Shown here: positions 7,812 through 52,391 of the stretch, piece by piece
Position numbering within the stretch: the first letter of the stretch is position 1
Layout of the letters: every line of letters starts with the position of its first letter
DNA from: Candidatus Nomurabacteria bacterium
GTDB taxonomy: Bacteria; Patescibacteriota; Minisyncoccia; Phycocordibacterales; UBA918
Direction: 5' to 3'
Assembly (NCBI GenBank): GCA_023898525.1
Contig: CP060227.1
Location: 957,932 to 1,021,931, forward strand
DNA: 64,000 bases
Made by a program: the position numbers and the translations under genes
Notes under the pieces: generated by a model
The model's input: only the letters and a program-made list of their open reading frames with translations
What the model was told of the DNA's origin: nothing
Databases searched by the model: none

Positions 7812-7885
7812 TTTATGTTTTATTTTAGCTATATTTAAACAAGCATAGATGTGTAATATTCATTAGAATTACAGGAGGTGGATAA

Positions 7886-8230
7886 ATGAGTATTTTAAAA
7901 AATTATTTACGTTACGTTCTAGCGCTCCCTTTTTTGTTTGTTTTGTATATGTTTTTTAGTGGTGCTAATACACCTTATGTAAATGAGCAAGATATGTACA
8001 GGGCTAGTGATACATACGTAGTTAATCTTACGTATGTTGACGAAGAGAATGATAGAATTTATTTTGACTTGATAGATTATAATAAAAAATTATTTAATGG
8101 TCGTAGGTTTATATTGATTACAGATTCATCTGGACCAAAAGAATTCGATTTTTATACCATAAATGGTGAACTTGTTCTCATTGAAAATGATAGACTAGAC
8201 CTTATCCTAAAAGTGAGAGGGATAGATTGA
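7886..8230 (+). CDS. NfeD-like small membrane protein (putative partner of the downstream SPFH protein)
   Basis: N-terminal TM segment and a C-terminal beta-rich domain. Placed immediately upstream of, and abutting, the band-7 gene. Confidence 0.4.
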   Translation: MSILKNYLRYVLALPFLFVLYMFFSGANTPYVNEQDMYRASDTYVVNLTYVDEENDRIYFDLIDYNKKLFNGRRFILITDSSGPKEFDFYTINGELVLIENDRLDLILKVRGID

Positions 8231-9106
8231 TTGTGGGGGCTGTCTACTAATTTTGTAGATGGCTCTTTCATTATCTCCTCACCAGCGTATAATAAAAATA
8301 GGTTACCAGATTCTAACTTTTTAAATATGAACTTATTTTGGATTATATTTCTTGTAGCTATTGTTTTGATTTCTTTCTTACGGGAGGTGAAGCAGTATGA
8401 GCGAGGGGTAGTACTTACCATGGGGCGTTATACAAGCTTGCGTAAGCCGGGTTGGAGTATTATCGTGCCGGTATTTCAAAAAATGTACAAAGTAGACCTG
8501 CGAGTAAAGGCGGTTGATGTGCCGGACCAAAAGGTGATTACTAAAGATAATGTATCGGCCAGTATCAATGCGGTGATTTACTATCGGGTGTCTGATGCGG
8601 CTATGGCGATACTGGAAGTAGAGGATTTTCGTTATGCGGTGTCACAGTTGGCACAGACTACGATGCGAAATGTGGTTGGTGGTGCGGAGCTTGATGAGGT
8701 TTTATCACAGCGGGAAAAATTATCGACTCAAATTCAAAATATTGTTGATGAAGAAACTAATCAATGGGGAATTAAGGTAGATAACGTTGAACTAAAAGAC
8801 TTTTTCTTACCAGAAGATATGGAGCGAACTATTGCCAAGCAAGCCGAAGCAGAAAGGGAACGACGATCAGTGATTATCAAGGCAGAAGGAGAGGTGGTAG
8901 CGGCGGAGAATATCCAAAAAGCCGCTAGGATACTTTCTAGTGCTCCAGGCGCTTTGCATCTAAGAACTCTTCAAACTCTAAATGACCTATCGTCAGATCA
9001 GTCTAATACGGTGGTATTTGCTACACCAATTGAGGTACTAAGAGCCTTTGAGGGAACGAAAGAATGGCTACAGGCCAGTGTGGCGGAGAAGACTAAGGAT
9101 AACTAG
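8231..9106 (+). CDS. SPFH/band-7 (stomatin/prohibitin-like) membrane protein
   Basis: N-terminal TM helix, SPFH core (…VDLRVKAVDVPDQKVITKDN…) and a coiled-coil C-terminus. Confidence 0.8.
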   Translation: MWGLSTNFVDGSFIISSPAYNKNRLPDSNFLNMNLFWIIFLVAIVLISFLREVKQYERGVVLTMGRYTSLRKPGWSIIVPVFQKMYKVDLRVKAVDVPDQKVITKDNVSASINAVIYYRVSDAAMAILEVEDFRYAVSQLAQTTMRNVVGGAELDEVLSQREKLSTQIQNIVDEETNQWGIKVDNVELKDFFLPEDMERTIAKQAEAERERRSVIIKAEGEVVAAENIQKAARILSSAPGALHLRTLQTLNDLSSDQSNTVVFATPIEVLRAFEGTKEWLQASVAEKTKDN

Positions 9107-9331
9107 AATAAGTTAGGAGTGACAAAATGTCTTATTAGATTTAATATTTTTTAGATATGAACAAACATCTAATTCAGGGAGACCCGCGCTCAACCAAACA
9201 TACTGATATTCAGCAAACGCCACACAGAGTCGCGCCGCGTCTTAAAGAGGTGGTAAAAAATAAGGGGACAAAAGAAGGGAAAAAAGAGGCGAAATAATAA
9301 TAGAAAACTTATAAAAAGTAATATTGTTATT

Positions 9332-9529
9332 ATGAAAATATTTCGAACATGGAGGTTTTTATGGTGGGAGGTGAGTTTGATCAAGATCTGTCTTATTTCA
9401 CTAGGGATTTTGATTGGTGTGTATTTTTATGATTACTTAGTTGGTACTGAGTGGTTGTGGTGGATATTATTTGTATTAACAGCTATTTATTTTGTAGTCA
9501 GGTTTTTTAGGGACGAAGAGGAGACTTGA
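9332..9529 (+). CDS. Small membrane protein (65 aa)
   Basis: Two hydrophobic helices. Lies upstream of the methyltransferase. Confidence 0.3.
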   Translation: MKIFRTWRFLWWEVSLIKICLISLGILIGVYFYDYLVGTEWLWWILFVLTAIYFVVRFFRDEEET

Positions 9530-9536
9530 TTTTGCT

Positions 9537-10187
9537 ATGGATGATACCAAAATACCCGAAAAGTCTGGTTACGGAGTAGATGTGGCACTTAGGCGGGCGG
9601 ATGACTTGGATCGGAAAATGATTGGTCATGTGCTTAAAAAAGATGATTCAAAAGTGCTTGATCTTGGGTCTGGAGCCGGTGGACAGTCGGTACGGCTTTG
9701 TCTCGCAGGTGCTTCTGTAACGGCGGTTGATATAGATGATTACAGTGATGAATTTCTTAAGTTAAGGGAGGAAAACAATTTGTTCTTAGATCAGTTAAAG
9801 TTTATTCAAGGCGACATTAGAAATTTAAAGGAAATACTAAAAGGCGAGAAGTTTGATGATTGTTGTCTGCAGCGAACGATTCATTATTTGTCGTATCAAG
9901 AGGCAGAAAAGTTTTTAAAGGAATTGAGAGGAATGGTTAGTGATCGTTTGTATATTTCTGTGACCGGCTTAGGCACTGCGATTGGTGAAAAGTATCCAGA
10001 TAGAAAAAAGTCTGTTTCCGAACGCTTTGCCAAATTACCTGATGAAGAGGCGGAAATTTTTAGTGTGCAAGCGCCGGTTTGTTTATATACAGAAAAAGAA
10101 TTTATAGAGTTGTTGCAAAGTTCCGGCTGGCAAATTTTGGAATCTTCGGTGTCGCAGTTTGGTAATATCAAAGCGGTGTGCTTTTAA
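9537..10187 (+). CDS. Class I SAM-dependent methyltransferase
   Basis: Motif I VLDLGSGAGGQS and an acidic motif II (VTAVDID). Confidence 0.7.
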   Translation: MDDTKIPEKSGYGVDVALRRADDLDRKMIGHVLKKDDSKVLDLGSGAGGQSVRLCLAGASVTAVDIDDYSDEFLKLREENNLFLDQLKFIQGDIRNLKEILKGEKFDDCCLQRTIHYLSYQEAEKFLKELRGMVSDRLYISVTGLGTAIGEKYPDRKKSVSERFAKLPDEEAEIFSVQAPVCLYTEKEFIELLQSSGWQILESSVSQFGNIKAVCF

Positions 10188-10290
10188 TTATTACAATTTT
10201 TAGTAAATAAAGTAACCGAGGAACGACCTTTCTGTTGTCGCTCGGGCTCCTCTTTAAGGTCGCACCTTCGTTATTTTAATGTATAATTAA
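10184..10290 (+). mobile_element. Degenerate copy of MITE-1 (carries the internal repeat ...CTCCTCTTTAAGGTCGCACCTTCGTTATTTT)
   Basis: The 10213-10279 core aligns to 49298-49358 and to the reverse complement of 36820-36890. The left TIR is degenerate (gtgcttttaattatt). Confidence 0.35.
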
Positions 10291-15706: not shown

Positions 15707-15732
15707 GGTTCAAATCCCTCCCGGCGCTACAA

Positions 15733-15760
15733 ACGACAACAGCCAAAAAGTAACTACTTT
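15733..15760 (-). terminator. Terminator hairpin downstream of tRNA-Tyr (minus sense)
   Basis: agccaaaaagta-ac-tactttttggct, a perfect 12-bp stem, followed by TTGTCGTTTGT in minus sense. Confidence 0.55.
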
Positions 15761-15776
15761 TTGGCTGGTCATTTTG

Positions 15777-15860
15777 TGCGCCGGGAGGGATTTGAACCCC
15801 CGTAGGGCGAAGCCCGTCAGATTTACAGTCTGATGCAATTGACCACTCTGCCACCGACGC
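15777..15860 (-). tRNA. tRNA-Tyr(GTA), type II
   Basis: Manual fold: acceptor GCGTCGG/CCGGCGC, anticodon stem TCAGA/TCTGA, loop CTGTAAA, long variable arm, T-arm GGGGG-TTCAAAT-CCCTC. Confidence 0.85.
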
Positions 15861-29880: not shown

Positions 29881-29917
29881 AATGAGGAATAAAGTCAACT
29901 GTTAGGGTGTTGAGGGG
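29881..29917. repeat. R38 direct repeat copy 1
   Basis: aatgaggaataaagtcaactgttagggtgttgagggg. A second copy lies at 30425-30460 (1 mismatch). Confidence 0.7.
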
Positions 29918-29996
29918 TGTTTAGAATAAATAAATATCGACATAATTTATTTGTTATGTTACCTTCTCTTCAGATTAACAAAGAGAGGTGATTAAA

Positions 29997-30149
29997 ATGG
30001 CAGAAGCAAGAATAGGTTGCAATAATGATTTAAAAAACCAAGGAAAAGATTGTTATTATGTGTCTCGTGAGGAGTATAGTTTTAAAGTGAATAGAAATGT
30101 TTCTAAATATTTACATAGTGATGGTATTTGGAGAAGGAGTACATCGTAA
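29997..30149 (+). CDS. Small protein (50 aa) with a strong RBS, followed by a 25-aa ORF (30159-30236) and a terminator (30262-30295)
   Basis: AGAGAGGTGA lies 7 nt upstream of the ATG. Protein: MAEARIGCNNDLKNQGKDCYYVSREEYSFKVNRNVSKYLHSDGIWRRSTS. Confidence 0.3.
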   Translation: MAEARIGCNNDLKNQGKDCYYVSREEYSFKVNRNVSKYLHSDGIWRRSTS

Positions 30150-30338
30150 TTATTAACGATGAAGAAATTTTTTCTGGTTACTTTCCGACTAGAGAAAGTG
30201 CTCAGAAAGCTCTTGATAAAGCATCATAAATTTTAATACTATTTTCATTTGATTTCACAAAGAAAGCCATGTTCGCTACATGGCTTTTATTTTTTACCGA
30301 TTCTACAACTCAGATACTAGATTTATAATGTGGTGAAT

Positions 30339-30421
30339 CATACTTTACATACCCCTGCATTTCCATATTCATCAGCAATATTCCAGCTTCTGCAGTTGGG
30401 ATATTTAGTTGTCTGATAAAG
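30339..30421. repeat. R85 direct repeat copy 1 (duplicate of the dprA 3' end)
   Basis: About 92% identical to 30882-30964. Contains the hairpin atattccag...ttgggatat. Confidence 0.7.
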
Positions 30422-30424
30422 AAA

Positions 30425-30460
30425 AATGAGGAATAAAGTCAACTGATAGGGTGTTGAGGG
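30425..30460. repeat. R38 direct repeat copy 2
   Basis: Lies immediately after R85 copy 1. Confidence 0.7.
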
Positions 30461-30550
30461 ATATCTAACATTATAAATTGTTGAAGTTCCTTGTTTAAAA
30501 AAACGCTTATATTCCGAATATTTGGATAATATAAGCGTTAGATATAAATA

Positions 30551-30865
30551 TTATTTTAGTTTAATTAATTTTATTCTTTTTCTCATTCTTTCTTCTTCCT
30601 CTTTACGTATATCTTTGTAATACTGACCGCTTTTTCCATAATCTAAGGCATTTGCACATAAAAAAAGAAAACCTAAAAATAAAATAATGAAAATAGTAAC
30701 CAAAAAACCTTCAAGTGAAATGGTTCCATTCATATTTCCCATTAAGTGAACGGGTGGTACTGGCATGGTTATACCCCTGTAGTTGTTTTTTATCAAAAGA
30801 ATCCGATTGGGTTTTAGCACAATTGTTCTAAAAAGTAAACAACCAATAAATCTCAAATTGTACAA
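30551..30865 (-). CDS. Hypothetical membrane protein (104 aa) inside cassette-like unit 2
   Basis: ORF with one TM helix and a basic C-terminus. Confidence 0.3.
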   Translation of the reverse strand: MYNLRFIGCLLFRTIVLKPNRILLIKNNYRGITMPVPPVHLMGNMNGTISLEGFLVTIFIILFLGFLFLCANALDYGKSGQYYKDIRKEEEERMRKRIKLIKLK

Positions 30866-31725
30866 TGATAGTAAGACATTTCACACTTTACATACCCCTG
30901 CATTTCCATATTCATCAGCAATATCCCAGCTTCCGCGACTGGGATATTTAGTTGTCTGATCAAGGTGTCGCGGTCGAGGGGTTCGTGGAGGAGTTTGATA
31001 ACTTTTTCCTCGAGTTCTGAAAGTTTTGGTCTAGCTTTTTGCTCGGCTTTTTTCTCTTCTATATTTAAGGCAAGGAGGATGTCGCTAGCGTCGGTGACCA
31101 TGGTGGCGCCGAGTTTTAGAAACTGGTGGGTACCATGAGAGTTTTTGGAAAAGATACTACCAGGGACAGCTAGTAGCTCGCGATTGTAGTCGACTGCCAT
31201 ACGGGCGGTGATTAGGGTGCCGGACTTGGCTCTGGCTTCTATTAGTATCGTAGCGTGTGCTAGACCGGCCATAAGACGGTTTCTTTGGGGGAAGGTCCAC
31301 GGGGCGGAGGCGGTTGTAGGTGGTAATTCCGACATCAGACCGCCGCCGCCCTCCACAATCCTCCTTGCCAAACTCTTATGACTGGCAGGATATAAAACTT
31401 TTTCATCCAGTCCACTACCAGGTACGGCTAGGGTGTACAGATTATTCTTGAGGGCGGCTTCGTGCGCTAGTCCATCTATGCCGAGCGCGAGGCCGGACAC
31501 AATCCCGACCGGGTAGCCAGCCAGTCCAGAAATAAGGTGCTCAACTACTTGCTTGCCGTAGGTGGTGTATTTTCGCGAGCCAACTACCGCTAGAAGCTTT
31601 AGTTCTCTCGGTGGCATTTGTCCTTGGTACCAAAGCTGCTTGGGCGGGTCGGGAATTTCGTGAAGAAGCCCAAGTCCTTTGTCTTTAAAATCACTGGGAT
31701 TTAGTTCTTTTATCTCACTTTCCAT
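30853..31725 (-). CDS. dprA: DNA-processing protein DprA
   Basis: Rossmann-like DprA core (AVVGSRKYTTYG...GLALGIDGLAHEAAL). Confidence 0.85.
   Translation of the reverse strand: MESEIKELNPSDFKDKGLGLLHEIPDPPKQLWYQGQMPPRELKLLAVVGSRKYTTYGKQVVEHLISGLAGYPVGIVSGLALGIDGLAHEAALKNNLYTLAVPGSGLDEKVLYPASHKSLARRIVEGGGGLMSELPPTTASAPWTFPQRNRLMAGLAHATILIEARAKSGTLITARMAVDYNRELLAVPGSIFSKNSHGTHQFLKLGATMVTDASDILLALNIEEKKAEQKARPKLSELEEKVIKLLHEPLDRDTLIRQLNIPVAEAGILLMNMEMQGYVKCEMSYYHCTI
30882..30964. repeat. R85 direct repeat copy 2 (overlaps the last 23 codons of dprA)
   Basis: The hairpin atatcccag-cttccgcga-ctgggatat lies within it. Confidence 0.7.
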
Positions 31726-34593: not shown

Positions 34594-35740
34594 AAAACTC
34601 CCAGGGTAAACCGAGAGTTTGTGTTCAACAATAATTTATTCAATTTGCTCTCGCTCTTTGCGAGAGGTGAATAACCAAATGAGAATAAATAATATGTAAA
34701 TTGCAATTCCAGATAATACTACCTTAAATTGGTCTAACATTCTTCTTTCTCCTTGTACATTACTCAATCTCGGCTTCGCCAAAAAATCCTGCAATTTTTT
34801 TTGGTGCGACAAGAATAATTACTGATAGTAACAAAAGTGCTGCTAAAGCCTTGTAGTCATATTTAAAGATCATTTGATGCCTCCCAGTAGAAATTTACTG
34901 TGATTTATTTATAACACATCTACAGATTATGTAAAGCGTTTTTTGAGCAAATAGGGTGTTTTTGAAAAGATGGCAAGGATTTTGGTCCTTGTATTTACCA
35001 GATTACAAAGTGATAATCATGTCGCTATTGGATTTATTTTAAGAATCGTGGTATAAACCAAAAGTATTCATAACTCTCAAAAAGGAGGAAGACATGAATA
35101 TATTGAAGATATTGGTCTCTAACCGGATAGCCCTTGCACATTCAATAGTGTTTTTATGCACAGGGAGTCTTATACTTAGTTCATGGTTTAGCACACCGCT
35201 ACCATTTATCGGGTATGTTCTTTATCTGATTATAATTAATTATGCAGAGTATGTTCACTGGCGGGATATGAACCCAGTTCCTCTAAATAAACGCTAATTC
35301 TAGTTCAAAAACTAGTTAAAGTCCTTGATATTTTTATTGGGGACTTTGTTTTTTATTAAAGTAAGTATAAGCCTAAAAGTACAAACGGTAATAAACGAAA
35401 AAGCCGGCTCCTAAAAATACAGTGCCGGCTTTTGCTTTGTCTCATGATTCCTCTATCATCTTTACCTCTGCGATGGCAGCGGCGGTTTCAATGGTTTTGA
35501 AACTTTGCGCAGCGGCAGAGTTAAGAGAGGTAAATGCTTCGGTGAAGAAGTGAGACAAAGCCCATAGAATTATAATAAAACCAATTGCTTTAAACATATT
35601 TGTGGATGTTAAGACCCCGACGACACTTGTTATTAATAAGTGTCAAAAATAATAAAGATGGGGCGCAATTGATTTGAAGAACCAGCTGACGGCAATATAC
35701 CACAAATTTTAAATATTGCAACTGTAAAGTCCTGAATTCT

Positions 35741-36764
35741 CACCCTAATTGCACAATCCTTTGCACCCTAATTGCACAGGTCAAGATGACATACATACTG
35801 CTTTTGTATGTCACACAAACAAATAGGACCGGAAGACTGGCCGGTTATTTCACGTATGCTCAAAGCGGGATACTCAGGAGTGGAGATTGCGCACATTATC
35901 AACAAAGATCCAAGTGCGGTTAATAGACATATTAAAGCGTATGGTGGTCGGGATAGATACGATGCTCGCGAGGTTCGCAGAAAGAAAAAACAGGCACGTA
36001 TCATTGCTATGGAAGGTACTAGAATACTCAAAGGAGTATTATTACGAGAAGTGAAACGATTATTAAAACAACACTACTCACCGGAACAGATAGTCGGAGT
36101 ACGTGATGACATCTCTGCGAGCACTATCTACCGATACATTAACGAACGAGCTCCACACCTTAAACAATTTCTTCGTTCTCAGAAAGGCAAGTATCGGCGC
36201 AAACGAGGCACCAAAATACGTGAAAAAGTTCGTGAAAGAGCCAAGAAACGTCGTATTGATGAACGACCGCCCATTATTGAACGTCGCTCCCGTTTGGGAG
36301 ATTGGGAGGGAGATACTATGCTGGGAAGAGACAAACGAGTACGTATTGTCACCTTCGTTGATCGCAGAAGCGGGTATCTAATTGCGTATCTTCTGCCAAA
36401 ATTAAATGCTACTTTACTCACTAAACTGGCGGTGGAAAAATTCAGGCGTATACCCAAAAACAAACGAAAGACCGCTACCTTTGATAACGGTACCGAGTTC
36501 AGTGACTGGGAACGGTTTGAGAAACAAACGAGTATGACTGTGTACTTTGCTTATCCATACCACTCTTGGGAGCGTGGTACCAATGAAAATACTAACGGGC
36601 TACTTCGACAATATTTTCCGAAAGACTTGGATTTCAACACCATTACTCCACAAGAACTTTCTGAAGCGGTTCGTCGTATAAATCATCGTCCTAGAAAGAG
36701 ACATAATTTCAAGTCTCCACATCAGATATTTTGGAAGTGATGGTCTGTGCAATTAGGGTGGTGA
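35741..36764 (+). mobile_element. IS30-family insertion sequence (copy 2) with identifiable inverted repeats
   Basis: The left IR caccctaattgcaca (duplicated in tandem at 35741 and 35763) pairs with the right IR tgtgcaattagggtg (36749-36763). The transposase ORF lies between them. Confidence 0.65.
35808..36740 (+). CDS. IS30-family transposase (copy 2, distinct sequence from copy 1)
   Basis: DDE context DWEGDTM, DNGTEF and a C-terminal E. 310 aa. Confidence 0.85.
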   Translation: MSHKQIGPEDWPVISRMLKAGYSGVEIAHIINKDPSAVNRHIKAYGGRDRYDAREVRRKKKQARIIAMEGTRILKGVLLREVKRLLKQHYSPEQIVGVRDDISASTIYRYINERAPHLKQFLRSQKGKYRRKRGTKIREKVRERAKKRRIDERPPIIERRSRLGDWEGDTMLGRDKRVRIVTFVDRRSGYLIAYLLPKLNATLLTKLAVEKFRRIPKNKRKTATFDNGTEFSDWERFEKQTSMTVYFAYPYHSWERGTNENTNGLLRQYFPKDLDFNTITPQELSEAVRRINHRPRKRHNFKSPHQIFWK

Positions 36765-36776
36765 TTCAAGAGTGTA

Positions 36777-36908
36777 TTGGTAACTAGACTAATTAAAATC
36801 AAGTAAAATAAGGGAATAACGGAGGTGCTACCTTAAAGAGGAGCGATGAGCGACGGGGAAAGGTTGTTCCTCGGTTATTTTCTATACAAATTAATTAGCA
36901 CAGGTGCC
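36777..36908 (-). mobile_element. MITE-1 copy (inverted orientation) immediately after the IS30 copy-2 right end
   Basis: Right TIR aattaattagcacaggtgcc. The internal sequence is the reverse complement of the 49298-49358 core. The left TIR is degenerate (ggtaactagactaattaaaa). Confidence 0.45.
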
Positions 36909-42089: not shown

Positions 42090-42512
42090 ATGGCAACAAA
42101 CAAGAAGGGGGGTAATAAAGATAACGGACTAGGAGTGGCAGTAGGACTGGGAGCGGTGGCAGCGGCTGTCGGGGCGTACTTTATGTATGGTAGTAAAAAA
42201 GCGGCTAAGAACCGCAAGGCGGTAAAGAGTTGGATGTTCAAAGCAAAAGCAGATGTTTTGGAAGCGCTTGAGAATACGCAAGACATGACCAAGAAAGAGT
42301 ACGAAAAATTAATTGATACCGTTGGTACTTCATATGCCAATATTCAGAGTGCCACTAAAACAGATTTGGCTGGTTTTAAAAAAGAAATGAAAGAACACTG
42401 GCTTGAAATTGCTAAGACAGCAGCACCAAAGAAAGCTCCGGCTAAGAAAAAGCCAGCTAAAAAAGCAGCACCAAAGAAAGCTCCAGCTAAAAAAGCAGCT
42501 AAGAAGGAATAA
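42090..42512 (+). CDS. Lys/Ala-rich histone H1-like protein (AKKAAPKK repeats) with a hydrophobic N-terminus
   Basis: C-terminal KAP-type repeats. A terminator follows at 42526-42560. Confidence 0.45.
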   Translation: MATNKKGGNKDNGLGVAVGLGAVAAAVGAYFMYGSKKAAKNRKAVKSWMFKAKADVLEALENTQDMTKKEYEKLIDTVGTSYANIQSATKTDLAGFKKEMKEHWLEIAKTAAPKKAPAKKKPAKKAAPKKAPAKKAAKKE

Positions 42513-45200: not shown

Positions 45201-45821
45201 ATGGATGTTTACCTTATACGCCATGGAGAGACTGATGGAAATGTCGCCAGACGACACCAGCACGACAAGACCGATATAAATGAGATCGGTACGGCGCAAA
45301 CTAAAGCGATTGCTAAAGCTATAAAGCGAATCAACCCAACTCATATTGTGACCAGTACCAATTTGCGAGCAGTGGAGACAGCGAAACTGATTATAATCAC
45401 TTGTGAACTAGACCTGATACCAGAGACCAGCACGGCCTTTGAAGAGATACGGCGACCAAGCTGGCTCATTGGCAGTAGTCATTTTAGCCTTATTTCAGCC
45501 CAGTATATGTGGCATTGGTTTTTTGATTATAAGTTGAAAGGGGAGATGGAAACCTATACCCCTTTCCTTGGACGTATTATTGAAGCTAAGCGGTATTTAG
45601 AATCATTGCCAGACGATGCGCGAGTAGTTGTAGTATCGCACTCAGTTTTTATCAATATCTTTCTTGAGCACCTTTGTGTTGAAAAAAGAATGAGTTTTTG
45701 GCGAGCGATGAAGCGTCTCTGGAAGGTATTTACCATGCCTAATACTAGTATGATTCATCTGCGTCACGTGCATTCTGAGGGTGGTTGCCACTGGGAAATT
45801 GTGTCTGATAGGGTTAAGTAA
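45201..45821 (+). CDS. Histidine phosphatase family protein (paralogue)
   Basis: RHG motif (VYLIRHGET). Confidence 0.65.
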   Translation: MDVYLIRHGETDGNVARRHQHDKTDINEIGTAQTKAIAKAIKRINPTHIVTSTNLRAVETAKLIIITCELDLIPETSTAFEEIRRPSWLIGSSHFSLISAQYMWHWFFDYKLKGEMETYTPFLGRIIEAKRYLESLPDDARVVVVSHSVFINIFLEHLCVEKRMSFWRAMKRLWKVFTMPNTSMIHLRHVHSEGGCHWEIVSDRVK

Positions 45822-45930
45822 AATAATCCTGAGTAACTAATGTAACCATAGTGCATATCCTACACTTGAAACTTACGCTCATTATGGCACTATAGTGCGA
45901 CGTGCACTATTTGTAGCACAGATTTATTTT

Positions 45931-46005
45931 TGCCGGATCGTTTGGTAGTAGGACTCCGTAAAACAGTCTCCCAGACTGTTTTACCTAGTACTGTCTATCG
46001 GTTTT
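45931..46005 (+). pseudogene. Degenerate tRNA-Gln-like copy in which hairpin H replaces the anticodon arm
   Basis: tgccggatcgtttggtagtaggac + CCGTAAAACAGTCTCCCAGACTGTTTTACCTAGT + actgtctatcggttttgattgg. The T-arm is degenerate. Confidence 0.55.
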
Positions 46006-46055
46006 GATTGGTTGAAATAAACCATGAGCAAATAATAAATCACAACAAACAACAT

Positions 46056-46075
46056 TGCCGGATCGTCTAATGGTA
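46056..46075 (+). other. 5'-half fragment (20 nt) of tRNA-Gln
   Basis: tgccggatcgtctaatggta is identical to 46141-46160. Confidence 0.7.
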
Positions 46076-46103
46076 TGTGAACATACAAACTGCGTTCGTA
46101 CGG

Positions 46104-46244
46104 AAACAAAAGAGGTATTTTAAATATTCATGTCTATCGCTGCCGGATCGTCTAATGGTAGGACTACGGTTTCTGGTACCGTCTATCGGGGTTCGAGTCC
46201 CTGTCCGGCAGCGATGGTCGGGAATTAAAATACCTCTTTTGTTT
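46104..46244. repeat. Perfect 20-bp inverted repeats bracketing the intact tRNA-Gln
   Basis: aaacaaaagaggtattttaa (46104-46123) and ttaaaatacctcttttgttt (46225-46244). Confidence 0.8.
46141..46211 (+). tRNA. tRNA-Gln(CTG)
   Basis: Manual fold: acceptor TGCCGGA/TCCGGCA, anticodon stem ACGGT/ACCGT, loop TTCTGGT, T-arm CGGGG-TTCGAGT-CCCTG. Confidence 0.8.
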
Positions 46245-46270
46245 TTCTCACTCACATTGTTTGTTGTTTT

Positions 46271-46342
46271 AGGACTCCGTAAAACAGTCTCCCAGACTTT
46301 TACCTAGTACCGTCTATCGGGGTTCGAGTCCCTGTCCGGCAG
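46271..46342 (+). pseudogene. 3' portion of a tRNA-Gln-like gene carrying hairpin H followed by an exact copy of the tRNA-Gln 3' 34 nt
   Basis: aggac + hairpin H (46279-46303) + accgtctatcggggttcgagtccctgtccggcag, identical to 46178-46211. Confidence 0.6.
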
Positions 46343-46429
46343 CAAATGTAAAAAGAATAGCTTCTACCTTATTTTTGGAAGTTTTTATATGGTCTATGTA
46401 CAAAATTATTGTGATAAACTGATATTGCT

Positions 46430-47410
46430 ATGCCAAAAAAGAAAGAGATTGGTCCAATGGTCATTTACCAAACAAAGTCTGGTGCGCTTGAATTGCGTGG
46501 GGATGCGAAGAAAGAGACTTTGTGGGCGACTCAAGCTCAGATTGCACAAGCATTTGATGTTGATGTACGTACTATAAACGAGCATATAAAAAATATTTAT
46601 AAGACTGAGGAGCTGTTTGAGAAGTCAACTATCCGGAAATTCCGGATAGTTCAAACTGAAGGGAAGCGTACGGTTAAACGTGAAATGAATCACTATAATC
46701 TAGATATGATTATTTCGGTTGGTTATCGAGTAAACAGTAAGAAGGCGACTCAATTTCGTCAATGGTCCACCAAGACACTTCGTGAACATATTGTCAAGGG
46801 TTACACTATAAATCGTAAGCGAATAGGACATAATTACGATATTTTTATGAAGGCTGTAGCGGACGTTCAGGCACTACTACCTGAACATGTCACTCTTGAC
46901 CCTAAGACAGTACTTGAACTTATTAAGGAGTTTGCTTCAACGTGGGTTTCACTTGATGCATATGACAAAGAATCTCTAGAAATCAAAGGGGTGACCAAAA
47001 AGCGTGTGACGCTTGTGGGTGCGGATTTACGCAATGCGATCAATGAGCTTAAGTACGAACTTGTGCGTAAAGGTGAGGCTGCTGATATATTTGCGTCTGA
47101 ACGTAGAGAGGGAGATGTGGAAGGTATTGTTGGAAATGTTATGCAGTCTTTTGATGGAAAGTTCGTATATTCTACAGTAGAAGAAAAAGCTGCTCATCTT
47201 CTATATTTTATGGTCAAGAATCACCCATTCATCGACGGAAATAAAAGGTCTGGTGCTTTTGCGTTTGTATGGTTTCTTAGAAAGACAGGTGTACGTGGAG
47301 CTAAAAATATAAACCCAGCAGCCCTCACAACCCTAACTCTTCTTATTGCAGAAAGTGATCCAAAGCAAAAGGATCAAATTGTTGCTTTGGTAACTCAAAT
47401 GTTGAAGTAG
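46430..47410 (+). CDS. RhuM-family N-terminal domain fused to a Fic/Doc domain
   Basis: Fic motif HPFIDGNKRSG. The N-terminal region is RhuM-like (…NHYNLDMIISVGYRVNS…). Confidence 0.75.
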   Translation: MPKKKEIGPMVIYQTKSGALELRGDAKKETLWATQAQIAQAFDVDVRTINEHIKNIYKTEELFEKSTIRKFRIVQTEGKRTVKREMNHYNLDMIISVGYRVNSKKATQFRQWSTKTLREHIVKGYTINRKRIGHNYDIFMKAVADVQALLPEHVTLDPKTVLELIKEFASTWVSLDAYDKESLEIKGVTKKRVTLVGADLRNAINELKYELVRKGEAADIFASERREGDVEGIVGNVMQSFDGKFVYSTVEEKAAHLLYFMVKNHPFIDGNKRSGAFAFVWFLRKTGVRGAKNINPAALTTLTLLIAESDPKQKDQIVALVTQMLK

Positions 47411-47464
47411 TGGGAGTTTTTAATATTAAAGTAGCTAATGTGATGTGGGTGTTGATGGGCAGGT

Positions 47465-48127
47465 ATGGGTAGACTTAGATACTGCCAAGGAATATATGGA
47501 ATCAAAGTGTTAAAAGGTTCTCAATCTACACCAGCTTTTGATATACTTACATGCATGAAAACAGCAATCATTATTCACGGAATGCCTGGCAAGGAAGGAT
47601 ATTTTAATCCAGAAAACGACGCTGAATCTAACTGTCATTGGTTACCTTGGATTCAAAGACAGCTTATTGTAAATGGTATTTTAGCTCAAACCCCCGAAAT
47701 GCCTGAGCCTTATACTCCAAATTATGAAAAATGGTTTTCACTGTTCTCTCAATTCAAGGTGGATGAGCAAACAGACCTTATTGGACATAGTTGCGGGGCA
47801 GGATTTTTACTACGCTGGCTTAGTGAAAATAAATTATCGGTCGGTAAGTTGGTTCTTGTTGCTCCATGGATGGATCCAGATAATGAACTGGGAGACGATA
47901 ATAGTTTTTTTGACTTCGAAATAGACCCTGAGTTGGTTCAAAGAACTAAAGGAATATACACCTTTAATTCTTTAGATGACGATCGTGCTGTTCATGAAAG
48001 TGTTAGAAATATTCTTGAAAAACTACCTAAAAGCAATTTGATTGAGATGAAGAACATGGGACACTTCACTTTTTCTTCTATGCGCACGAGAGAATTTCCC
48101 GAACTTGCTACTGCTTTACTCAAATAA
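47465..48127 (+). CDS. Alpha/beta hydrolase (serine hydrolase, YdeN-like)
   Basis: GxSxG motif GHSCGAG. 220 aa. Confidence 0.55.
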   Translation: MGRLRYCQGIYGIKVLKGSQSTPAFDILTCMKTAIIIHGMPGKEGYFNPENDAESNCHWLPWIQRQLIVNGILAQTPEMPEPYTPNYEKWFSLFSQFKVDEQTDLIGHSCGAGFLLRWLSENKLSVGKLVLVAPWMDPDNELGDDNSFFDFEIDPELVQRTKGIYTFNSLDDDRAVHESVRNILEKLPKSNLIEMKNMGHFTFSSMRTREFPELATALLK

Positions 48128-48199
48128 GCATTTATGTAGTTGTTTACTGAGTAAAACACGAAGGAGTGATGAGAGGAGGGTTGGATAATTGTAGTTGCT

Positions 48200-48325
48200 C
48201 CTAGGCTGGACCTCGTGGTAAATACTTGGTTTGTGAGGATTACGGAGCGATAAGGATTGTTGATGTTGGGGTTTGAGGGTGTTTGGCGAAAATGGTGGCT
48301 GAACCTGTTTCTGTGACCCCATTAC
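48200..48325 (+). repeat. Intergenic repeat B copy 1
   Basis: ...GGTTTGTGAGGATTACGGAGCGATAAGGATTGTTGATGTTGGGGTTTGAGGGTGTTTGGCGAAAATGGTGGCTGA... preceded by a half-palindrome cctaggctggacctcg. Confidence 0.65.
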
Positions 48326-48411
48326 TGCTATTTCCCTGTATAATCTAGTATAGTATAGTTGCTAAAATTATTCATAATAATGGAAATATTCTATTTACAA
48401 CCTTAAATAAC

Positions 48412-49083
48412 ATGCCAAATGAAGTTATCTTTTTTTTAATTTTATCAATTGACCTCGCACTTATTCTTTTCGCATTTAGACTTGGAAAGGAGTGGTTGTT
48501 CGCTGCAATTGCAGCGAACATGATTATTGTGAATTTTACATCATCTTTGCTTATTCCATTATTTGGCTTTGTTGCAAGTGCGGCTGCTGTTACATATGCA
48601 GCAATTTTTTTAGCAACAGATATTCTTACTGAGCATTATGGAAAGAAAGAAGGTTATAAATCTGTATGGATTGCATTCACAATGACATTGCTGTTTGTAG
48701 TTATAACGCAGTTAGTTTTATCATTTGATTCTATTTCTGACACAGCGTCTCTTAGTGAGTCGATGAGAAAAGCGTTAGAAGCAAGCCCCAGAATTGCTTT
48801 GGCAGGATTAACGGCATACCTTGTCGCTCAGAACTTTGATATTTGGTTTTATCATTTAATTCATTCAAAAACTGGTCCGAGACTTCTTTGGCTTCGCAAC
48901 AACTTGAGTACTATGGTTTCTCAAGCGATTGACTCTGTTATATTTTTCTCAATTGCATTTGTCGGAGTACTTCCATTTGTAGTAATTGTACAACTTATTA
49001 TAACTGGGTATGTAGCAAAGCTTGTGGTGGCTGTTATTGATACTCCTTTTGTTTATTTAAGTTATCTGATTAAAAAGAAGTAA
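48412..49083 (+). CDS. Putative queuosine-precursor transporter (YhhQ/DUF165-like)
   Basis: 223 aa, six TM helices and DUF165-like topology. Confidence 0.45.
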   Translation: MPNEVIFFLILSIDLALILFAFRLGKEWLFAAIAANMIIVNFTSSLLIPLFGFVASAAAVTYAAIFLATDILTEHYGKKEGYKSVWIAFTMTLLFVVITQLVLSFDSISDTASLSESMRKALEASPRIALAGLTAYLVAQNFDIWFYHLIHSKTGPRLLWLRNNLSTMVSQAIDSVIFFSIAFVGVLPFVVIVQLIITGYVAKLVVAVIDTPFVYLSYLIKKK

Positions 49084-49149
49084 AGTAAACGGTAGTAATA
49101 GGAAAATGAGGATAAGTATAATGTTTTAACATTAGAGTGTTAATTCTCT

Positions 49150-49256
49150 CGAGGTCCATCCTAGGGGTTCCCCCAGGATGGACCTCGGGGTCTGTAAGGA
49201 TAATGGAGCGATAAGGATTGTTGGTGCTGGGGTTTGAGGGTGGGTGATGTAGCCGT
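49150..49256 (+). repeat. Intergenic repeat B copy 2 (3' part replaced by a MITE insertion)
   Basis: Perfect palindrome cgaggtccatcctagggg-ttc-ccccaggatggacctcgg followed by GGAGCGATAAGGATTGTTGGTGCTGGGGTTTGAGGGTG. Confidence 0.65.
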
Positions 49257-49389
49257 GGTACCTGTGCTAATTAATTTCTTTAGAAAATAACTGAGGAACC
49301 ACCTTTTCCCGTTGCTCTCACCACTCCTCTTTAAGGTCGCACCTCCGTTATTTTCTTTATTTTACTTGATTTTAATTAGCACAGGTGCC
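49257..49389 (+). mobile_element. MITE-1 (133 bp) with 18-bp terminal inverted repeats GGTACCTGTGCTAATTAA / TTAATTAGCACAGGTGCC
   Basis: Perfect TIRs. The internal core 49298-49358 is shared with 10213-10279 and with 36820-36890 (inverted). Inserted into repeat B copy 2. Confidence 0.6.
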
Positions 49390-49465
49390 AGCCGTAATGG
49401 TTGACATAAGACATTATTTGTGTTATCTTATGGTTGGCAATTTCGCCTACAAACAGGAGAAATAA

Positions 49466-50392
49466 ATGTACAAAAAACTATGTGCAATTTTAATTTTCGT
49501 AGCAATATTTTTGTCCGGCTGTTCAACAGAGTCAATTAACGGAGGTGAAGTTGGTGTTATCCAAGATAAACCCTTTTTCTTTGGAAATGAAGGTTTTCGA
49601 GAACATGTTGAACCGCAAGGTAGAGTTGTTACCTGGCTCACTTCAGATATTCACAAAGTATTCATAGCACCACAAACGATACGGATATCTGTAGATGATC
49701 TAATGTCAAAAGATAAAGTACCTTTAGATTTTGACATTGCCGTAACCATAGAATCAACTAGTCCGGAAACTGTGTGGAAAATGCTTAGTCAGTACGGTGG
49801 AGGAGTCACACATACATTTAACAAGTTTGTCTTACAAGGCACCTACACACAAGAAGGTGTTTTAATTAGGCCAACAGGTGAATTTATGAGTCACCTTCGC
49901 GATAAGGTAAAGACTTACGCAATGGACGAGTATGTAGTAGGTCAAACAATGGAAGGTAAGACATCTTCTGCCAGTAAGGACACAGAAGAATCTCTTGTTT
50001 CTTACGTTAATAGTTTTTTGGAAAGCAGAGGTGTTGAAATCAGGGTTGTGAATATAGCTTTAGGAAGAGCGATACCTCCACAGGGTGTAAAAGACTCTAT
50101 GGAAAGGACTGCAGAGCAAATACAAAGAGTGAGAACAGAAGCAGAAAGAGAGCAGGCTGAAATCTCACGAAAGAATGCAGAAAAGGCTGCAGCTGATGCA
50201 GATAAACAATATATGGAAGAACTTGGTATAACTTCTGAGCAGTACTTAAAAATCAGAGAACTGCAGATGGTTGAAAACGTTTGCGGTAAATCAGCAAAAG
50301 ATCTAAAAGATAATGATCAACAAGGTAATAAACCTCGTTGTATGCTGGTTTATGGCCAAGCCTTACCAACAATAAGTACATCAATGGATTAA
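49466..50392 (+). CDS. SPFH/band-7 domain lipoprotein
   Basis: Lipobox LSGCS, SPFH core and a C-terminal coiled-coil. 308 aa. Confidence 0.65.
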   Translation: MYKKLCAILIFVAIFLSGCSTESINGGEVGVIQDKPFFFGNEGFREHVEPQGRVVTWLTSDIHKVFIAPQTIRISVDDLMSKDKVPLDFDIAVTIESTSPETVWKMLSQYGGGVTHTFNKFVLQGTYTQEGVLIRPTGEFMSHLRDKVKTYAMDEYVVGQTMEGKTSSASKDTEESLVSYVNSFLESRGVEIRVVNIALGRAIPPQGVKDSMERTAEQIQRVRTEAEREQAEISRKNAEKAAADADKQYMEELGITSEQYLKIRELQMVENVCGKSAKDLKDNDQQGNKPRCMLVYGQALPTISTSMD

Positions 50393-50405
50393 AATTTCAT
50401 TGTTA

Positions 50406-50431
50406 AATCCCCGACAACCTCGGGGATTTAT
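50406..50431 (+). terminator. Intrinsic terminator
   Basis: aaatccccga-caacc-tcggggattt followed by ATTTATG. Confidence 0.55.
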
Positions 50432-50461
50432 TTATGTTTTTGTAGTTTTTACTTTATTTTG

Positions 50462-50600
50462 TCCCGAGGGTAACCCTCGGGATAGGTTTGGTTTGTGAAG
50501 AAGGTGGAGCGATAAGGATTGTTGATGCTGGGGTTTGAGGGTGGTTGGTGAAAATGGTGGCTGACCCCATTTACTCATTTACTCATTTACTCATTTACTG
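50462..50600 (+). repeat. Intergenic repeat B copy 3 plus CATTTACT tandem repeats (x4)
   Basis: Palindrome cccgagggt-aa-ccctcggg then ...GGAGCGATAAGGATTGTTGATGCTGGGGTTTGAGGGTGGTTGGTGAAAATGGTGGCTGACCCC, followed by catttactcatttactcatttact. Confidence 0.65.
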
Positions 50601-50731
50601 GCTGACCCTATTTACTGCGTTTATCCCATTTATCATTATGTATATATCAAAGATGACGGATATACCACCATTTAAACTTTTACCTTGTCTGTGAGTTTAC
50701 AATTTATAATTATGGCGTATATTAGATATAT

Positions 50732-51448
50732 ATGGAAGATAATTCTTTGGTTTTTCTTTCGAGTCATATAGCTCTGAGCTTTGAAAAGCCTTTACTCTCA
50801 CCTGAAAACCATTATGTTGATTTGAATACCAAAATGAAGGGTATTTTTGGTGATTCTCCCGATATTAATCCAGTACCATTTGTAAGTAACGATAGAGAAT
50901 TATTAGATTCTCCTGTGGTTCAGGCTGTGTCAGAAGATGGTAAATATCAGTTAAATATAGCCAGAGGCAGAATAGACTTCTATAGACATGCAACACTTAA
51001 CGAGATTGCATTTTCTGACACAAAAGAAGATTTCTTAGCAAAAGCGTTACAGATTACAGAAATAACAACATCTTCTTTGGGTGTAAAGTGGATGGGCTTT
51101 GTTGTTGCTTATATTTACGTAAATAATAATCTAAAAACTGTATCTCACAACGTTTTAAATTCAGATATCGTAGATATAAATCCTGGAGATTCAAATTCAT
51201 TCTTTGCTAGAAATACTAACAAAATAAATGTGGGTAAAGTTTTATCAAACAACTTAATTGCAATTGGGTCTGGAACTGCCAGTAAGGAAAAACAAGAGCC
51301 GGTACAAGGTATTATGATAAATCAAGATTTTAACACAAGAGCTTCAGAGAATATTATTGATAAGGACTTTGTTAAATTATACATTGATGAATCAGAAAAA
51401 CTTATTAAGGTAGGTGAAGTTTTAAGAATCCTAAAAATTATTATATGA
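50732..51448 (+). CDS. Hypothetical protein (238 aa), first gene of an AT-rich three-gene operon
   Basis: ORF only. Overlaps the next gene by 4 nt (ATGA). Confidence 0.5.
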   Translation: MEDNSLVFLSSHIALSFEKPLLSPENHYVDLNTKMKGIFGDSPDINPVPFVSNDRELLDSPVVQAVSEDGKYQLNIARGRIDFYRHATLNEIAFSDTKEDFLAKALQITEITTSSLGVKWMGFVVAYIYVNNNLKTVSHNVLNSDIVDINPGDSNSFFARNTNKINVGKVLSNNLIAIGSGTASKEKQEPVQGIMINQDFNTRASENIIDKDFVKLYIDESEKLIKVGEVLRILKIII

Positions 51449-51987
51449 GTCTAGCTATACAGAATTATTCTTACAATACATCTGGCAAGACAGCTTTCAG
51501 AGATTTTTTTGTAAATGATAGTACTGCTGGCATACCTAGTCCTTATGCTAAGAGGTTTATTTATACAAATCGTTATGATTACGTACATTCATTTAAGCCA
51601 GAGGGTCCTATTTTTGATACCGATATTAGTAGAGGAAAAAAAGCGTCTGAGCTAAATAAAAAAATAGTTTCAAATTATTTAGATGCTTTTCAAATTGAAA
51701 ATTCAATAATAAAACCAGAAAAAGTTAGAAGTTTTTTGATTAAAAACAGAAGTATTTTTGGTAAATTAACCAAGTTGATAACACTTGCTCTGGCAGATTA
51801 TCAAGATTTGATAGAGAGTATATGTTTGAGGGTTTTAGCTGATGAATCAGGTAAGCAGGAGTTTGTACTAGTTGAATTTAATTTGAACGAAGAAATTGAT
51901 GTAGATGATTCAATAGAGATAGATGATGATTTTAAGTATAAAAACCCTGATTTGTCCAATAATCTAATAAATTTTGATTTTGTATAA
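51445..51987 (+). CDS. Hypothetical protein (180 aa, acidic C-terminus), second gene of the operon
   Basis: ORF only. Overlaps the next gene by 1 nt (TAATG). Confidence 0.5.
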   Translation: MSLAIQNYSYNTSGKTAFRDFFVNDSTAGIPSPYAKRFIYTNRYDYVHSFKPEGPIFDTDISRGKKASELNKKIVSNYLDAFQIENSIIKPEKVRSFLIKNRSIFGKLTKLITLALADYQDLIESICLRVLADESGKQEFVLVEFNLNEEIDVDDSIEIDDDFKYKNPDLSNNLINFDFV

Positions 51988-52391
51988 TGTCTTTTGATTG
52001 GAATAATTATTTAGAGTTAGCAAAAGTTTTAAGAGATGACTCTACAGTTGTAACAAATAATTTAACTGAAGCACAGCAAAGGTCGTCGGTCAGTAGAGTA
52101 TATTATTCAGCTTATAATTTAGTTCTTTCTCACGCAAAAACCCTAGGCTATTCTTTCCCGTACTTAAGAGATTCTAAAACAGGTAAACCTCTTACGGGTT
52201 CCCATGCTGATCTGATACAATTTTGCAAAGACCATACAGATCCTGTTATTAACAATATAGCCCGAGATCTTGAGTCTTGCAGGAATTCTAGAGTAATAGC
52301 GGACTACGAAGATGATTTTCCCGAATTAAATAAGAAAAACAAAATTGCGATTAAAAAAGTAACGAGGATTTTAAAAGTGCTTAATCCATAG
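51987..52391 (+). CDS. Hypothetical protein (134 aa, alpha-helical; weak HEPN/Abi-like flavour, unverified), third gene of the operon
   Basis: ORF only. The C-terminal segment ...ESCRNSRVIADYEDDF... is suggestive but not a canonical Rx4-6H motif. Confidence 0.45.
   Translation: MSFDWNNYLELAKVLRDDSTVVTNNLTEAQQRSSVSRVYYSAYNLVLSHAKTLGYSFPYLRDSKTGKPLTGSHADLIQFCKDHTDPVINNIARDLESCRNSRVIADYEDDFPELNKKNKIAIKKVTRILKVLNP

Follow-up and report, generated by a model that had tools for sequence, protein, structure and literature searches.

Three diverged copies of an intergenic repeat with a near-invariant core set unrelated genes apart in a foreign islet of a Candidatus Nomurabacteria genome and may record recombinational stacking of single genes

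We analysed a 64,000-nt stretch of the genome of Candidatus Nomurabacteria bacterium (hereafter the window; GTDB lineage Bacteria; Patescibacteriota; Minisyncoccia; Phycocordibacterales; UBA918; GenBank assembly GCA_023898525.1, contig CP060227.1, positions 957,932 to 1,021,931 of the forward strand), in which a first-pass annotation made from the letters of the DNA had pointed out a conserved unit, Repeat B, behind each of three consecutive genes. The window has a GC content of 40%, with positive plus-strand GC skew throughout, and its sequence is also found on contig JACKGB010000004.1 (GCA_020632175.1) and on a 1.09 Mb Logan contig. The copies of Repeat B keep apart four unrelated transcription units, namely a Ser_hydrolase gene, a Vut_1/YhhQ gene, a Band_7/SPFH gene and an operon without known function. 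Our tentative reading, to which we give a probability of about 0.42, is that Repeat B represents a single intergenic spacer in three versions, juxtaposed through the insertion of single-gene modules by recombination that was anchored in the spacer. The features of the locus, in positions of the window, are the following.

46141-46343, plus strand: tRNA-Gln(CTG) gene (46141-46212) and a 40-nt duplicate of its 3′ end (46304-46343); left border of the islet
47555-48127, plus strand: Ser_hydrolase gene upstream of copy 1; start according to the NCBI gene call, with a longer open reading frame (ORF) from 47465
48200-48345, plus strand: Repeat B copy 1, with a remnant of the hairpin's right arm (48200-48219), the core (48244-48281) and a 3′ extension common to copy 3 that ends at the extended -10-like motif TGTATAAT
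48412-49083, plus strand: Vut_1/YhhQ gene (TIGR00697 queuosine-precursor transporter family), the module between copies 1 and 2
49150-49256, plus strand: Repeat B copy 2, with a 38-nt palindrome (49150-49187) and the core (49205-49242); homology stops 14 nt past the core, at the inserted element
49257-49390, plus strand: 134-nt element resembling a miniature inverted-repeat transposable element (MITE), inserted in copy 2 14 nt past the core, with AGCCGT on both flanks and, by eye, terminal inverted repeats GGTACCTGTGCTAATTAA / TTAATTAGCACAGGTGCC
49466-50392, plus strand: lipoprotein-like Band_7/SPFH gene; module flanked by copies 2 and 3
50404-50430, plus strand: intrinsic terminator of the Band_7 gene, a canonical stem and T-run upstream of copy 3, whose right arm has the CCTCGGGG motif of the copy 2 hairpin
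50462-50640, plus strand: Repeat B copy 3, with a hairpin (50462-50482), the core (50506-50543), a (CATTTACT)x4 microsatellite (50568-50599) and a duplicated GGCTGACCC
50732-52391, plus strand: three overlapping ORFs (238 aa, 180 aa and a HEPN-like 134 aa) downstream of copy 3; right end of the low-GC islet

Using a repeat search of the window, we recovered Repeat B as a three-member family of direct repeats on the plus strand (48226-48310, 49187-49271 and 50488-50572, with start-to-start spacings of 961 and 1301 nt), at the places where the first-pass annotation had put it. The strictly conserved block is a G-rich core, GGAGCGATAAGGATTGTTGRTGYTGGGGTTTGAGGGTG, which measures 38 nt and is thus shorter than the conserved segment of about 60 nt originally described. 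Matching with the 38-nt consensus of that annotation led to the same three sites with 0, 1 and 0 mismatches in copies 1, 2 and 3, respectively; the consensus is exact in copies 1 and 3, but copy 2 reads GGTG and not GATG (G for A). No fourth match exists on either strand of the window, with 0 matches in 100 shuffles and 0 expected by chance. The proposed position behind a plus-strand stop codon holds for every copy, the upstream stop codons ending at 48127, 49083 and 50392 and the copies starting 72, 66 and 69 nt later. The unit as a whole is intergenic and about 100-150 nt long: copies 1 and 3 share 88.75% identity across 80 nt and can be aligned, patchily, out to about 48345 and 50640, i.e., over most of each spacer, and copy 2 shares just about 54 nt with the other copies before it is broken by the 134-nt inserted element.

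From 5′ to 3′, the unit consists of a GC-rich hairpin, a G/T-rich tail of 17-22 nt, the core, and a weaker-conserved stretch that in copies 1 and 3 reaches an extended -10-like motif (TGTATAAT or TGTATATA). The sequence of the hairpin is specific to each copy, yet its right arm terminates in CCTCG(G/T)GG. A palindrome had been described at the start of each copy, which is accurate for copy 2 (two 18-nt arms with one mismatch) and copy 3 (a 9-bp stem) but not for copy 1, where only a homologue of the right arm is left (85% identity to 49172-49191), in a segment that folds no better than shuffles (z = -0.23). Since copy 1 retains only this arm, its left homology boundary falls within the palindrome. 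The copy 3 hairpin passes a terminator scan with its G/T-rich tail, the copy 2 hairpin is without a T-run, and copy 1 is without a hairpin. The sequence CCTCGGG occurs three times in the window, each time in a hairpin of this locus, and we dropped the idea of an uptake sequence because the motif is confined to this locus in the window. Within copy 3, the (CATTTACT)x4 microsatellite is followed by a second GGCTGACCC; the microsatellite also causes spurious blastn matches to iteron-like repeats of plasmids, those of Psychrobacter among them.

Conservation within the unit is uneven. Compared pairwise in an ungapped register, the cores differ at 1-2 of 38 positions, whereas the flanks next to the core differ at 21-47% of aligned positions (Fisher p from 0.019 to 9e-6 against the core). 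A core that is nearly unchanged between diverged flanks must have been constrained or homogenised, and the copies are not simply young duplicates; such a contrast would be expected if one conserved site lay within diverged versions of one spacer. The core further contains the beginning of a mini-ORF (48263-48316, 49224-49247 and 50525-50551) that reads MLGFEG followed by 1-11 variable codons (7-17 codons in total) and whose start lies 6 nt behind a Shine-Dalgarno sequence, AAGGA. The only two variable positions of the core change ATG to GTG and TTG to CTG in this mini-ORF, so that start codon and Leu are retained, and the peptide diverges past codon 6-7; such substitutions, which would preserve the mini-ORF, are suggestive at most. 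Coding on the minus strand was rejected by inspection: a 68-aa ORF (48116-48322) spans copy 1, but a 14-nt indel shifts the frame in copy 3. Ahead of Band_7 and after the MITE lies a strong-looking predicted promoter, TTGACA-17-TATCTT (49401-49429); all promoter and terminator calls here are consensus matches, and promoter-like matches are no more numerous than in shuffles.

Within the sampled sequence, Repeat B occurs at this locus only. The first-pass annotation had proposed a search of the genome for further copies, and nhmmer with a profile together with blastn detected no fourth copy elsewhere in the window or in about 45 kb beyond it, made up of two contigs reached via a multi-copy insertion sequence (IS) transposase (L013 and L015) and of 6 kb past the window end (L006), so that the check extends to only about 10% of the genome. 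Searching Repeat B with blastn, we obtained 0 matches in phages, and in plasmids only the CATTTACT microsatellite was matched. No inverted repeat bounds the unit, and no target-site duplication surrounds it. The MITE-like element inserted in copy 2, in contrast, is dispersed and is present four times in this sample (49257-49390; 36789-36908, minus strand; 10209-10277; and 14943-15039 of L013); its terminal inverted repeats resemble, by eye, the ends of the rve-transposase IS at 35725-36776, which one MITE copy directly adjoins. Among candidate relatives of the core, a G-box (GGGTGTTGAGGG) in the topA-dprA spacer (29905 and 30449) and a weak box at 47447 were discarded, as the motif count seemed enriched but sliding-window similarity was that of background; resemblances to G-quadruplexes, Chi, FtsK-orienting polar sequences (KOPS) and operon polarity suppressor (ops)/JUMPStart elements were considered by eye only, none fitting.

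The genes around the repeat are foreign in composition. The G+C content at third codon positions (GC3) is 0.19-0.33 in the genes of 46430-52391, compared with 0.39-0.46 in four large housekeeping genes (IF2, ClpB-like, SerRS and topA), and the left border of this islet is a tRNA-Gln gene whose duplicated 3′ end is probably an integration scar. Low GC3 and an adjoining tRNA gene of this kind put Repeat B in a small islet gained by horizontal transfer, in a place that is a classical hot spot of integration. The islet's first gene (46430) encodes a RhuM/Fic protein that matches the PADLOC candidate defence family PDC-S23, and its last gene is HEPN-like. At the border itself, tRNA-Gln fragments are nested over 45931-46343, with extra 5′ pieces at 45931-45958 and 46056-46083 besides the duplicated 3′ end, and the intact tRNA-Gln is flanked by 20-nt perfect inverted repeats (46104-46123 and 46225-46244); two of the fragments have a hairpin insertion of about 26 nt (TAAAACAGTCTCCCAGACTGTTTTAC), and a similar motif lies at 4260-4291.

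We also found repeat-bracketed insertions elsewhere, both in relatives and within the window. The best TyrRS relatives are 75-78% identical and differ in gene order, the closest homologues of Vut_1 (68-70% identical) and Band_7 (39-50%) stand in contexts that differ from the window, and the 238-aa gene is present on four contigs, whose arrangement does not differ wherever they extend into the repeats. The SPFH/Band_7 gene is repeat-bracketed in three separate lineages, i.e., in 3 of the 7 subfamily lineages inspected (this window, L007-9 and L029), and unbracketed in the other four (L010-12, L028, L030 and L032). In L007, from Parcubacteria (Band_7 46% identical), the gene is bracketed within 7750-9591 by a 218-nt repeat (95% identity) and a 62-nt terminator repeat (89%), with a repeat spacing of 1310 nt and a second unit that keeps its 5′ and 3′ flanks around an unrelated 205-nt interior with a 42-codon ORF. 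In L029, also from Parcubacteria, a terminator repeat (646-714 and 1943-2011, 78% identity, spacing 1297 nt) brackets the Band_7 orthologue within 600-2300, and a 45-nt fragment of greA coding sequence is repeated as well (728-772 and 2230-2274, 91%). The spacings in L007 and L029 compare with 1301 nt between copies 2 and 3 in the window. In L010, where Band_7 shares 80% identity with its L029 counterpart, Band_7, an orthologous terminator and greA follow one another as in L029 but nothing is duplicated, and in this comparison L029 reads as a recombination of haplotypes with and without Band_7, anchored in the shared terminator-greA segment. A second Band_7/SPFH paralogue of the window (8231-9106) has a more typical, core-like composition (GC3 0.39) and no flanking direct repeats.

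A further case lies in the topA-dprA spacer of the window (29881-30964), where a 180-nt segment (30304-30484) duplicates the 3′ coding end of dprA (30847-30964, 81%) and the adjacent topA-side leader (29881-29940, 80%), and inserts of 363 and 362 nt with unrelated small ORFs and no mutual similarity lie between the copies. This is a repeat-bracketed insertion of the same kind as Repeat B. Duplicated coding fragments such as those of greA and dprA cannot be regulatory; they mark the footprints of insertions that leave two diverged local versions around the insert.

From these observations we infer a possible mechanism and course of events. The Vut_1 and Band_7 modules would have been inserted successively (Band_7 after or before Vut_1), each anchored in the spacer, either by single crossover of a circularised fragment (Campbell-type integration) or by homology-facilitated illegitimate recombination after uptake of DNA from a related lineage. 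By either route, the insert would end up between the resident and the incoming version of the anchor, so that the resulting direct repeats would be diverged and not identical. Each unit would represent a whole gene junction, with the hairpin that closes the upstream gene, the G/T-rich tail, the core and promoter-like sequence, and the near-invariant core would be the part common to all recombining partners, held constant by a sequence-specific function; most likely, the core would be a protein-recognised DNA site at the module junction. With the repeats in place, each module could be excised or duplicated by RecA-mediated recombination between copies, should the locus be active at present. This stacking of modules accounts for the co-orientation of the genes, their unrelated cargo, the confinement to a single locus, the divergence between copies, the boundary of copy 1 in half a hairpin, and the parallels.

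Known systems resemble the locus in part. Both Campbell-type integration and homology-facilitated illegitimate recombination are established processes, described in Acinetobacter, Streptococcus pneumoniae and Pseudomonas stutzeri. They likewise leave an insert flanked by two versions of the anchor, which fits repeats of 65-95% identity and the fragments of greA in L029 and dprA in the window, but they are processes and not a dedicated element, and alone they fail to explain the core or three successive events at one spacer. A second likeness is to tandem accretion between repeats of the attL/attR type, as in tRNA-linked islands and in integrase-less elements resembling cis-mobilizable elements (CIMEs), where direct repeats combine a conserved identity block with diverged arms and several inserts are stacked at one site. 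The direct repeats here do bracket the compositionally foreign Vut_1 and Band_7 genes, in an islet that adjoins a tRNA gene whose 3′ end is duplicated; the inserts, however, are single genes of about 1 kb without integrase or excisionase, no recombinase is found among the islet genes, and the identity block lies outside the tRNA or gene end and is without the recognisable recombinase-binding symmetry of attachment (att) sites. The pdif modules of Acinetobacter and the Xer-dependent integrative mobile elements (IMEX) also consist of small gene modules between short recurring sites, and are mobilised by a host recombinase acting in trans. Their pdif/dif sites have 28 bp, made up of two arms of 11 nt around a spacer of 6 nt, and stand in inverted orientation around pdif modules, whereas the copies of Repeat B are direct, longer and without dyad symmetry. 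We class the Repeat B locus among repeat-bracketed recombinational insertions; although its layout is that of an integron-like array, its nearest mechanistic analogues would be attL/attR tandem accretion and homology-anchored insertion in transformation.

Several points weigh against the stacking of modules as we propose it. By itself it leaves the near-invariance of the 38-nt core unexplained, and it requires a sequence-specific function common to the partners, candidates for which are a junction site bound by a recombinase or another protein, or a regulatory DNA or RNA signal. No circular form was seen, no recombinase occurs among the islet and window genes covered, and by eye (no formal dif search having been made) dyad symmetry is not evident in the core, which would be unusual for a crossover site of a tyrosine recombinase and argues weakly against a classical recombinase core site. 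Homology-anchored insertion also needs donors that carry the spacer, and no other instance turned up: the sample of this genome amounts to about 110 kb of roughly 1.09 Mb, and scans of public collections, made with exact patterns, gave a single chance match without extension for a 19-mer in 185,579 species genomes, 0 matches for a 29-position pattern in JGI metagenomes and 0 for a gapped pattern in IMG/VR. No Repeat B-like sequence lies near the closest Vut_1 and Band_7 homologues, and no assembly carrying these genes has a cassette-free or rearranged variant of the locus. Finally, duplication in situ combined with selective constraint on the core would be expected to give the same picture. 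On the provenance of the modules, a viral origin was set aside, as Band_7 and the 238-aa protein are without relatives in IMG/VR.

Three of the alternatives to stacking were already raised by the first-pass annotation, which had compared the locus with integron cassettes and had also suggested a REP-like element or an RNA from the 3′ untranslated region (3′-UTR). The integron comparison is right about the layout, with co-oriented, unrelated single ORFs, each followed shortly past its stop by a conserved unit of about 100 nt, at spacings of 961 and 1301 nt where about 1-1.3 kb is typical for cassettes, in a foreign islet beside a tRNA gene; it broke down in every defining test that we ran. If the locus were an integron cassette array or a cluster of attC sites lacking an integrase (CALIN), Repeat B would represent attC sites, on which an IntI encoded elsewhere acts in their folded single-stranded form, and would show the R″-L″/L′-R′ imperfect palindrome with GTTRRRY/RYYYAAC boxes. 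When both strands were scanned with regular expressions, the two boxes never occurred together on one strand of a spacer, and none of the three spacers had a RYYYAAC...GTTRRRY pair, in keeping with the annotation's own remark that obvious R″/R′ boundaries are missing. The proposed bottom-strand fold did not turn out attC-like either, since only short, nearly perfect, copy-specific hairpins (missing in copy 1) pair, and the non-palindromic 38-nt core forms no pairs in the DNA and RNA folds of either strand (z = +0.40 for the bottom-strand DNA fold of copy 1). An intI-like tyrosine recombinase, another proposed check, is absent from the ORFs covered: precomputed Pfam annotation of the genes at window 16-70 kb and hmmscan of 20 further window ORFs hold neither a tyrosine or serine recombinase family nor a PF00589-type (Phage_integrase) integrase, and genes of transposition are limited to two IS transposases of the rve type, at distances of 12 and 22 kb. 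Unlike integron cassettes, moreover, the modules appear to have promoter-like sequences of their own, and we consider an integron extremely unlikely. The idea of a mobile repeat related to repetitive extragenic palindromes (REP), to bacterial interspersed mosaic elements (BIME) or to MITEs, inserted independently in three spacers, draws on the intergenic sites and the accompanying hairpin, and we hold it to be highly improbable, given that all copies lie within 2.4 kb with none in the further 45 kb or so, that a genuine MITE of the same genome is dispersed in four copies, that Repeat B is without terminal inverted repeats or target-site duplication, and that the homology of copies 1 and 3 covers nearly a whole spacer and not a compact element. 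Three paralogous small-RNA genes or 3′-UTR-derived small RNAs would be in keeping with a strongly conserved 38-nt primary sequence and with an antisense strand that is C-rich and unstructured. This too is very unlikely: at gathering thresholds, Rfam matched only tRNAs in the window (the preQ1 riboswitch expected upstream of Vut_1/YhhQ being among the models without a match), a permissive scan of 45800-51000 (E <= 5) gave no match overlapping the core, the nearest weak matches being sR20 at 48162-48201 and MIR2646 on the MITE, and RNAalifold found no supported common structure, with a compensatory change in 1 of 30 predicted pairs. Copy 3 stands behind a canonical terminator, no promoter and terminator pair surrounds the core on either strand, and the minus-strand hairpin is followed by an A-rich and not a T-rich tail.

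Two further explanations take the conservation of the core as their starting point. As a shared cis-regulatory element, the core would be an operator or upstream activating DNA site, or else an RNA leader or intercistronic signal, with the spacer copied for co-regulation of the genes downstream; an RNA signal could consist of the AAGGA and the MLGFEG mini-ORF, or of two or three GGA motifs as possible sites of a CsrA-like protein. A regulatory role would suit a core far better conserved than its flanks, the two variable core positions that spare start codon and Leu, the promoter-like sequence after each copy, and the absence of a preceding hairpin-plus-T-run terminator at copies 1 and 2, where transcription probably reads through. 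Yet the core of copy 2 is intact with a 134-nt MITE between it and the Band_7 promoter, and the distance from core to next start varies (131, 224 and 189 nt), which together argue weakly against an operator; the promoters predicted for Band_7 and the 238-aa gene fall beyond the stretch of clear homology, and matches resembling promoters do not exceed shuffles. The peptide is unconserved past codon 6-7, Rfam and folding provide neither a match nor a conserved fold, and the similar G-box at 29905 and 30449 is no better than background similarity. On balance we think a regulatory element rather unlikely, and we find it unlikely, to a greater degree, that Repeat B is an inert relic, i.e., a local segmental duplication of the spacer without a role as site or regulator, whose core was kept identical by short-tract gene conversion. 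Copies that are clustered and found nowhere else in the scans made are compatible with such a relic, as are the microsatellite expansion, the MITE insertion and the lost hairpin arm, which would be marks of decaying units. Simple tandem duplication, however, would copy the genes too, and the intervening genes are unrelated; it also seems strained to assume that gene conversion stayed within one and the same 38-nt tract in all three copies when divergence in the flanks reaches 47%.

Apart from the islet, the sampled sequence contains other traces of rearrangement and mobile or unusual elements. Inverted copies of tRNA 3′ ends stand head-to-head with tRNA-Cys and tRNA-Tyr (4461-4539 and 15707-15798), with near-perfect palindromes of 39 nt and 31 nt over the gene ends, and may be integration or inversion scars. 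The tRNA cluster at 1978-4469 (Leu, Lys, Leu and Cys) contains direct repeats of 127 nt (3778-3904 and 4343-4469, 96%) and of 75 nt (1978-2052 and 3976-4050, 81%) as well as a Peptidase_M78/ImmA-like gene (2847-3362), and looks like another heavily rearranged integration hot spot. A small ORF at 42411-42509 has a 15-nt-period tandem repeat encoding a Lys/Ala/Pro-rich tract (AKKAAPKK-like) and resembles a histone-H1-like or DNA-binding tail. A reverse transcriptase gene (RVT_1) adjoins a bAvd gene at 7338-8613 of L015, which is contig JACKGB010000002.1 of this genome, and the pair is probably a diversity-generating retroelement.

The candidate phyla radiation (CPR), or Patescibacteria, have tiny genomes and are reliant on DNA uptake, and to our knowledge the ways in which they acquire accessory genes are poorly understood. 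At the locus described here, unrelated single genes are stacked at one conserved junction sequence, with no integrase among the genes covered. In its most far-reaching form, the stacking of modules would be the work of a parcubacterial platform for gene capture, integron-like yet unrelated to integrons, in which modules are inserted and excised at a non-palindromic junction of about 40 nt by a recombinase acting in trans or by the competence/RecA machinery, a proposal that we regard as quite improbable. If Repeat B is only the scar of past events, it would be a useful marker of an insertion hot spot, and otherwise ordinary. If it reflects a regular route of gene gain, be it homology-anchored stacking or a site-specific system, it would represent a simple and testable mechanism of genome plasticity, in which modules may be reversibly excised.

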